From Octopus vulgaris (taxonomy: Eukaryota): DNA of 64,000 bases. A program made the position numbers and the translations under genes. The notes under the pieces were generated by a model that worked only from the letters and a program-made list of their open reading frames with translations, ran no database searches and was not told the DNA's origin. The stretch covers positions 43,648,001 to 43,712,000 of the forward strand of contig OX597828.1 of the NCBI GenBank assembly GCA_951406725.2. The letters are read 5' to 3'. Shown one piece after another: positions 56,857 through 57,065 of the stretch; positions within the stretch are counted from its first letter, which is position 1, and each line of letters opens with the position of its first letter.

Positions 56857-57065
56857 CTATCTTGTGTCTCTGTGTTTGCGTATTGGGTCTAAAAAATGAA
56901 TGCGGTGGTTGGGACGGTAGCTAGTATATAGTTGTTCTTTGTTGATTAGGGGTCTCCTGTTGTGATTTGTGGTGTGTGTTCTTGGAGCAGTATTGAGGAG
57001 AGCATCCCGATATCCCATATTCGGGTGTGGTGTTCTAGGAGGCCTTCGTTGGTAATCATTGCAAG
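56857..57065 (-). CDS. Remnant of a putative PLE upstream ORF (Arg/Pro/His-rich) overlapping the RT frame
   Basis: CNDYQRRPPRTPHPNMGYRDALLNTAPRTHTTNHNRRPLINKEQLYTSYRPNHRIHFLDPIRKHRDTR*; its 5' side is interrupted by the inverted insert at 57066-57168. Confidence 0.45.
56890..56896 (-). promoter_or_regulatory. Candidate -1 ribosomal frameshift heptamer U UUU UUA
   Basis: caT TTT TTA gac in the upstream frame; a -1 slip enters the RT frame (TTT TTT AGA CCC...). Confidence 0.55.

Follow-up and report, generated by a model that had tools for sequence, protein, structure and literature searches.

The window, that is, the whole 64,000-nt stretch of Octopus vulgaris DNA analysed here, contains on its minus strand what is likely the ORF1/RT junction of a two-ORF, endonuclease-bearing (EN+), Neptune-like Penelope retroelement (PLE). 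The features of the locus are given below; X2 and X4 are two of the public runs compared with the window further on.

53713..54814, minus strand: 3′ end of the element (pLTR-like), terminating in a (TA)n/(TATG)n microsatellite
53882-53818, minus strand, in the 3′ end, and 58235-58299, plus strand, in the inverted copy: weak hammerhead-like match (Rfam HH9)
54566..56920, minus strand: RT-GIY-YIG frame, 784 codons, stop-free, first ATG at 56719
56856..56859, minus strand: TAG stop of ORF1, followed by C at +4; the slip site's first Phe lies 12 sense codons upstream and the TTA codon 33 nt upstream
56890..56896, minus strand: putative slippery heptamer T TTT TTA in X XXY YYZ phase, read Phe-Leu in the 0-frame and Phe-Phe-Arg in the −1 frame
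56860..57065, minus strand: 3′ remnant of ORF1 in the 0-frame, with a low-complexity R/N/P/T/H tail and a YRDALL motif like the xYADAV of relatives
57066..57167, plus strand: 102-bp inverted insert, a copy of the element's own 55000-55105 region (106 bp, 99%)
57168..57284, minus strand: another ORF1 remnant that the insert has displaced; in the X2/X4 form it is open and in frame, whereas two compensating single-base indels break it in the window
57299..58414, plus strand: inverted, 5′-truncated copy of the 3′ end, 96% identical, in a head-to-head pLTR arrangement

The RT frame starts after the TAG at 56923-56921 (minus strand) and ends at 54566. It matches RVT_1 with 33.8 bits, above the cut-off of 29.6, and has 501 homologues at E ≤ 1e-20. 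The match to GIY-YIG (PF01541; E 0.00038) reaches 21.1 bits, just below the cut-off of 22.6. In an alignment of 35 sequences, C694, C697 and H716 of this C-terminal GIY-YIG domain with CCHH are invariant and H733 is nearly so. C650, C655 and C658, also invariant in the 35 sequences, form the CX2-5CxxC linker before the endonuclease, as it is defined in the accessible part of Craig et al. 2021 (PMC8557442). The segment 57299-58414 is the inverted copy of 54814-53713, and a (TA)n-type microsatellite surrounds the insertion. The element thus shares with the Neptune-type EN+ PLEs of that paper, as its accessible sections describe them, the RT, the linker, the C-terminal GIY-YIG with CCHH, the inverted pLTR and the microsatellite target. 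By its linker and RT motifs it appears to resemble Neptune elements in a by-eye comparison with printed alignments, in which RT3-4 are nearest to DreriNep1 and XtropNep4; the RT tree used below contains no named reference elements. The same sections call canonical EN+ PLEs single-ORF. Unlike these, the element in the window has a separate ORF1 in the 0-frame, and no pseudoknot was found in the window. The legend of Fig. 1 in PMC8557442 mentions a frameshift with a pseudoknot that can set ORF1 apart, and itself names no clade. A search of viral contigs found no relative of the element.

Several smaller features accompany the element. The HH9 match is weak (19.7 bits, E 0.3, gathering threshold 52; fold z −0.04), and has TTGAAAA in the core position, a GGTC/GACC stem and a short palindromic CCGG. 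The core expected of a hammerhead is CTGA-N-GA; we take the motif to resemble the minimal hammerheads of PLEs. The 3′ UTR carries a long GAA/GAT trinucleotide tract (54230-54430, 57670-57890) whose length differs between the two pLTR copies. The element is flanked by a short interspersed repeat, presumably similar to cephalopod SINEs, in two copies of opposite orientation (52850-53270, 59900-60260).

At the junction, the 0-frame holding the heptamer reads ...RIHFLDPIRKHRDTR* and ends at the TAG at 56859-56857 (minus strand), which is overlapped by an ATA at 56860 in the RT frame. The first-pass annotation, made from the letters of the window, had noted that the RT frame opens after a TAG and has its first ATG at 56719, past the N-terminal motif, that a second frame overlaps this opening and carries T TTT TTA in X XXY YYZ phase, and that no obvious hairpin follows. 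The sequence agrees on each point. The first ATG falls downstream of the IINLT..LSKGLKFTPTP motif, and the heptamer (56896..56890, minus strand) lies in 0-frame phase within the ORF overlap, as in a canonical −1 frameshift site. On its 3′ side, 130 nt fold at −4.3 kcal/mol (z +0.93), with an MFE of 0.0 over 45 nt and a crude pseudoknot score of 0. The run of six T in the heptamer is the sole one on the sense strand of the 2.35-kb RT frame. The 102-bp insert, the two indels, the cut at 57284 and the fixed stop spacing described below had been missed in the earlier reading.

U UUU UUA is the slippery heptamer of HIV-1 gag-pol, and the junction shares with that system both the identical heptamer and the logic of a structural protein leading to an enzyme. 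Unlike HIV-1 gag-pol, in which the stimulator is a stem-loop according to the accessible part of PMC8915115, the window has no 3′ stem-loop, its ORF1 family has no match to a Gag-like domain or fold, and the 0-frame stop lies at a fixed 12 codons.

We collected 124 PLE loci and built a quick RT tree of 50 rows, consisting of the window and 49 loci chosen for a readable 5′ region or context. The collection includes 44 PLE-type loci (L081-L124) in prokaryotic genome assemblies, many of them in one Stappiaceae MAG, which are probably host DNA contamination. The window sits in an RT clade of 12 rows with 100% support. Exactly six T in phase, followed by A or G, were found in 10 of these rows; the exceptions are L005, which is without the N-terminal region, and L065, which is without the site and has a broken RT frame. 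The T-run was exactly 6 in all 12 T-type loci listed. In the RT bodies of 13 loci tested, T6 in phase occurred at only 4 of 7616 codons, so chance does not account for its presence at the junction in 10 clade members. The first-pass annotation had proposed a −1 slip onto the RT frame, to be checked by looking for the heptamer and the frame offset in related PLEs. Both are kept in relatives whose RT is 27-46% identical to that of the window, which supports the proposal.

The frames upstream of the junction point the same way. Where more than 290 codons of upstream frame overlap the opening of the RT frame (15 of the 124 loci), the RT is in the −1 frame in all 15, and the longest upstream frame in the +1 arrangement has 174 codons. 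A whole ORF1 is present in four clade loci (L002, L003, L007 and L011); the first ATG and the site lie 379-462 codons apart in these ORFs, which are homologous to each other. The distance from the slip site to the RT N-terminal motif is 17-65 codons in nine clade loci and 17 to 101 more widely. Based on these sequence comparisons, we consider a programmed −1 slip on U UUU UUA very likely in the parent family. Downstream of the RT-EN frame, L002 and L004 carry another copy of ORF1, oriented like the first (a partial tandem), and in L002 this copy repeats the T6A junction exactly. L051 (426-2345) encodes a 640-aa ORF1 without a Pfam hit, with a LIIGDSN-containing end followed directly by T6A and a 12-codon tail; we assume that the LIIGDSN-containing region resembles an SGNH esterase.

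A different reading of the same letters, raised already in the first-pass annotation, is that TTTTTTAG is a 3′ splice acceptor, in which case the RT frame would be spliced to an upstream exon across an intron, as happens in other PLEs. PLEs keep introns, as stated in the accessible part of PMC8557442, and 65% of the 20 nt preceding the site are pyrimidines in the window. The other loci, however, have only 30-55% pyrimidines upstream. Only 8 of 12 loci have AG directly after the T-run and the remaining 4 have GT or AT, which weakens the splice reading. Splicing would also require neither the constant length of the run (6 T) nor its invariant codon phase. No joint at the AG (56889) was among those listed in four public runs (contigs, none on record as RNA). 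We regard splicing as improbable.

The RT could also be made separately, by reinitiation or a leaky start near the ORF1 stop (at an ATG in some relatives, at ATA 56860 here), in which case the T6 would be incidental. The in-frame ATA does overlap the ORF1 stop, and the six closest RT proteins (57-61%; P0001-P0006) have a called M about 11-27 residues before the N-terminal motif, near the position of the ATA in the window. However, none of the nine clade loci with DNA has an ATG in frame between the point where the RT frame opens and the motif, and the called start lies at or after the conserved motif in 65 of 120 RT hits. A stop at fixed spacing forces an xTA codon (L/I/V) into the −1 frame anyway; L003, L004, L008, L010 and L061 have V, L, L, I and L there, respectively. 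Reinitiation leaves the T6 and its phase unexplained, and we give it a low probability.

In order to compare the window with other copies, contigs of four public runs (X1, X2, X4 and X17; four studies, 4 of 24 runs listed; none on record as RNA) were examined over 56400-57320, and their depth figures were not taken as copy numbers. The main contigs of all four runs are identical at the heptamer (T6A) and at ATA 56860. The contigs of X1, X2 and X4 that reach 57065 do not run on into the 102-bp insert, and X2 and X4 extend at least 255 nt past the cut at 57284. This X2/X4 form has a longer, uninterrupted 5′ end, with the 0-frame open for at least 107 codons up to the TAG. The upstream 0-frame of the window holds the insert at 57066-57167 and two compensating single-base indels, from which together a stop arises, and is cut at 57284. 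Since the frame is open in X2/X4 and broken in the window, the parent family has an ORF1 that the window copy lost. The site in the window is most likely a relic of the parent family's signal in a 5′-truncated copy, which cannot frameshift productively because its ORF1 is truncated and broken. Two candidates were discarded during this comparison. A private ATG-to-ATA point mutation at 56860 was rejected as ATA is present in the main contigs of all four runs, and the joints listed for X1 as 'opposite strands' and at 57168-57299 are artefacts that arise because the 106-bp piece is repeated.

The same material bears on whether a single ORF was disrupted, either by loss of one base in this copy alone or by a homopolymer error in the assembly; the first-pass annotation had suggested looking for T7 and a continuous ORF in other copies. 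One X4 contig of low depth (2.17, ~90% identical) does have T7, which fuses the frames, and one of the 150 ORF1 proteins described below (P0127) continues in frame into the RT motif and then ends soon after. T6 is nevertheless found in the main contigs of all four runs and in 10 of the 12 clade rows. A full ORF1-RT fusion is absent among 120 RT and 150 ORF1 proteins, the longest being 803 aa and 546 aa, respectively. Because T6 and the offset are conserved, a single broken ORF is refuted for practical purposes.

We also examined ORF1 as a protein family. A profile search (HMMER) gave 877 representative hits, while a word-based search with a 4-sequence ORF1 alignment gave two proteins only, one of them identical to the input. 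ORF1 is thus a family of at least 877 clusters, which adds evidence that a large EN+ PLE group is two-ORF. Of 105 members compared with Pfam, at most 1 matched any given family, fold searches of PDB and BFVD yielded nothing at E ≤ 0.001, and a cluster look-up of 10 proteins returned no names. The ORF1 of L007 is predicted to form long helices and a disordered tail (mean pLDDT 74.7). The gag-pol-like two-ORF expression proposed in the first-pass annotation consequently stands as expression logic but not as a likeness of the first protein, the ORF1 of relatives being all-helical by prediction and without a Pfam or fold match. The 68-aa ORF1 remnant of the window found no homologue among longer database proteins, which is weak evidence, and the ORF1 profile had no significant match to the window among the 20 rows listed. 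With neither search matching, it is only by its position, its phase and the RT clade that the window's ORF1 is linked to the family as a homologue.

All protein counts use the best 150 of the 877 hits. A Phe-Leu pair (FL) was found within 40 residues of the C-terminal end in 85 of these; many of the other 65 are fragments. The residue before the tail FL is E, K, Q, M or W, the residues whose codons cannot end in T, in 3 of 84 cases, compared with 47 of 113 for FL elsewhere in the same proteins. This depletion is the protein-level shadow of T TTT TTR. Seven homologues (P0128, P0129, P0157, P0163, P0176, P0180 and P0191) end in x-F-R plus 9-11 residues instead of F-L plus 10; such tails possibly reflect T TTT CGN or T TTT AGR, a single-tRNA slip variant at the same ribosome spacing.

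The distance from the slip site to the ORF1 stop proved to be unusually constant. Among the 13 loci with the heptamer and an overlap of <25 codons, the spacing from the slip site's first Phe to the stop is exactly 12 sense codons in eight (the window, L003, L004, L008, L009, L010, L051 and L061), L009 being a near-copy of L008 and the heptamer of L061 being A AAA AAC. The five other loci have their stop at 13, 14, 14, 19 and 22 codons. Outside this count are L083 (61 codons), L091 (81 codons, short upstream frame) and the long-overlap A AAA AAC group. The 12-13 spacing recurs in two further RT lineages, L051/L039 and L061. In the proteins (best 150 ORF1 hits), the FL-to-stop distance is 12 at 27 of 88 FL sites, 2-11 at 4, 22-23 at 13 and 32-33 at 6, and the positions neighbouring 22-23 average 1.8 FL sites each. 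Distances below 12 are thus nearly absent, whereas random stops would be commonest at short distances. The ten residues of the 27 twelve-codon tails have a mean identity of 9.5%. Among the 13 loci, C at +4 after the stop was found in 6 of the 8 twelve-codon loci versus 0 of the 5 others (background 0.20; Fisher p 0.02, post hoc).

If the slip occurs, ribosomes of the parent family would translate ORF1 (about 400 aa in relatives), and most would stop at the TAG, while a minority would slip −1 on U UUU UUA to make an ORF1-RT-GIY-YIG fusion, which would set a high ratio of ORF1 to enzyme. We propose that the stimulator could be a leading ribosome that terminates slowly at the ORF1 stop, replacing the missing RNA fold. 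With the stop in the A-site of the leader, a queued follower would have UUU/UUA in its P and A sites (33 nt behind) or would be just translocating off them (30 nt), and the spacings of 22-23 and 32-33 codons could represent the second and third queue positions. The stop in the window indeed lies one ribosome length downstream, at 33 nt from A-site to A-site compared with a queue spacing of 30-33 nt. According to the accessible part of a preprint (bioRxiv 10.1101/710491), human ribosomes queue behind stops every 11 codons (33 nt), with a 30-nt periodicity in an unbiased metagene, and collided stops in human cells are enriched for +4 C. Only from the +4 C context do we infer that the ORF1 stop may be slow.

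Given a slip, we tentatively hold, at somewhat less than even odds, that its stimulator is the leading ribosome at the ORF1 stop and not an RNA fold; for collision-stimulated slippage overall we put the probability at roughly 0.4. The main competing explanation is that the −1 slip is real but either unstimulated, at the low basal rate of U6A, or driven by an RNA fold or the nascent peptide. The 12-codon spacing would then reflect ancestry, a minimum length of the ORF1 tail, or an effect of FL in the exit tunnel of the terminating ribosome. We believe that this has a substantial chance of being correct, a little below one half. U6A slips basally without RNA structure. L004 (12 codons) has a strong hairpin and L001 (19 codons) a pseudoknot-like fold, and a pseudoknot is the stimulator named in the Fig. 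1 legend of PMC8557442. In favor of ancestry, the 12-codon class is clustered on the ORF1 tree, with 6 changes compared with a shuffled mean of 14.4 (quick tree, 77 of 151 rows); it falls mostly in one deep clade, and a 21-row ORF1 clade is without any 12 spacing (16-40). Because of this clustering, binomial p-values for the spacing are inflated. Branches inside the deep clade holding most 12-codon rows are long.

This competing explanation is argued against by the other 11 of the 13 loci, whose hairpin and pseudoknot scores do not reach the best 5% of shuffles in crude scans. It is also argued against by tails that keep their length although their sequence is not conserved (floor at 12 codons, additional peaks at 22-23 and 32-33), and by the recurrence of the 12 spacing with another heptamer in the distant lineage L061.

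The closest system to the proposed collision-stimulated slip is an engineered one. In E. coli reporters, according to the accessible part of Smith et al. 2019 (PMC6815119), a ribosome stalled at a stop stimulates −1 slippage of the trailing ribosome when 8-10 codons separate the A-sites, with a peak at 9. The heptamer there, as in the window, lies one ribosome length upstream of a stop, which is slow in the reporters and presumably so in the window, and there is no RNA structure. Those reporters are engineered and bacterial, whereas the putative site in the window is natural and eukaryotic and has 10 codons between the A-sites. A 0-frame stop near a slip site is also present in SARS-CoV-2, where it lies 5 codons away and is proposed, in the accessible part of Bhatt et al. 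2021 (PMC8168617), to let the pseudoknot refold. In contrast, the window lacks a fold, and the ORF1 tails of PLEs hardly ever have their stop at less than 12 codons.

A two-ORF frameshift in PLEs is probably not new, although we found no paper linking PLEs with programmed ribosomal frameshifting in the openly searchable literature; an ORF1 frameshift may be described in the 2017 Terminon paper and the 2006 PLE survey. The new part appears to be the stop spacing at the slip site, in that our searches of the openly searchable literature, which excludes subscription papers, returned no report of such a spacing or of a natural collision-stimulated −1 site. We would therefore suggest, as a proposal that may well prove wrong, that a widespread group of animal retrotransposons uses the terminating ribosome as a natural −1 stimulator, with a stop in weak context one, two or three ribosome lengths downstream. 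If so, a mechanism that we found only for engineered bacterial reporters would have a natural counterpart in eukaryotes, and the output of enzyme would be tied to ribosome load, termination speed, eRF1 and collision quality control. If the spacing is causal, it would add another class of −1 stimulator to RNA folds and bound proteins, and frameshift predictors should seek a stop 12 codons downstream instead of a hairpin.

A separate RT clade (L030, L045, L046, L049, L052, L053, L055, L056, L058, L063 and L070) has a different arrangement. Its ORF1 measures about 600-650 codons where whole and overlaps the RT frame by about 190-220 codons. A AAA AAC is found in phase near the start of the overlap in all 11 loci, L052 being a near-copy, and lies 188-212 codons before the ORF1 stop in ten rows. 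By its sequence, this clade may represent a second frameshift class with a long double-coding region.
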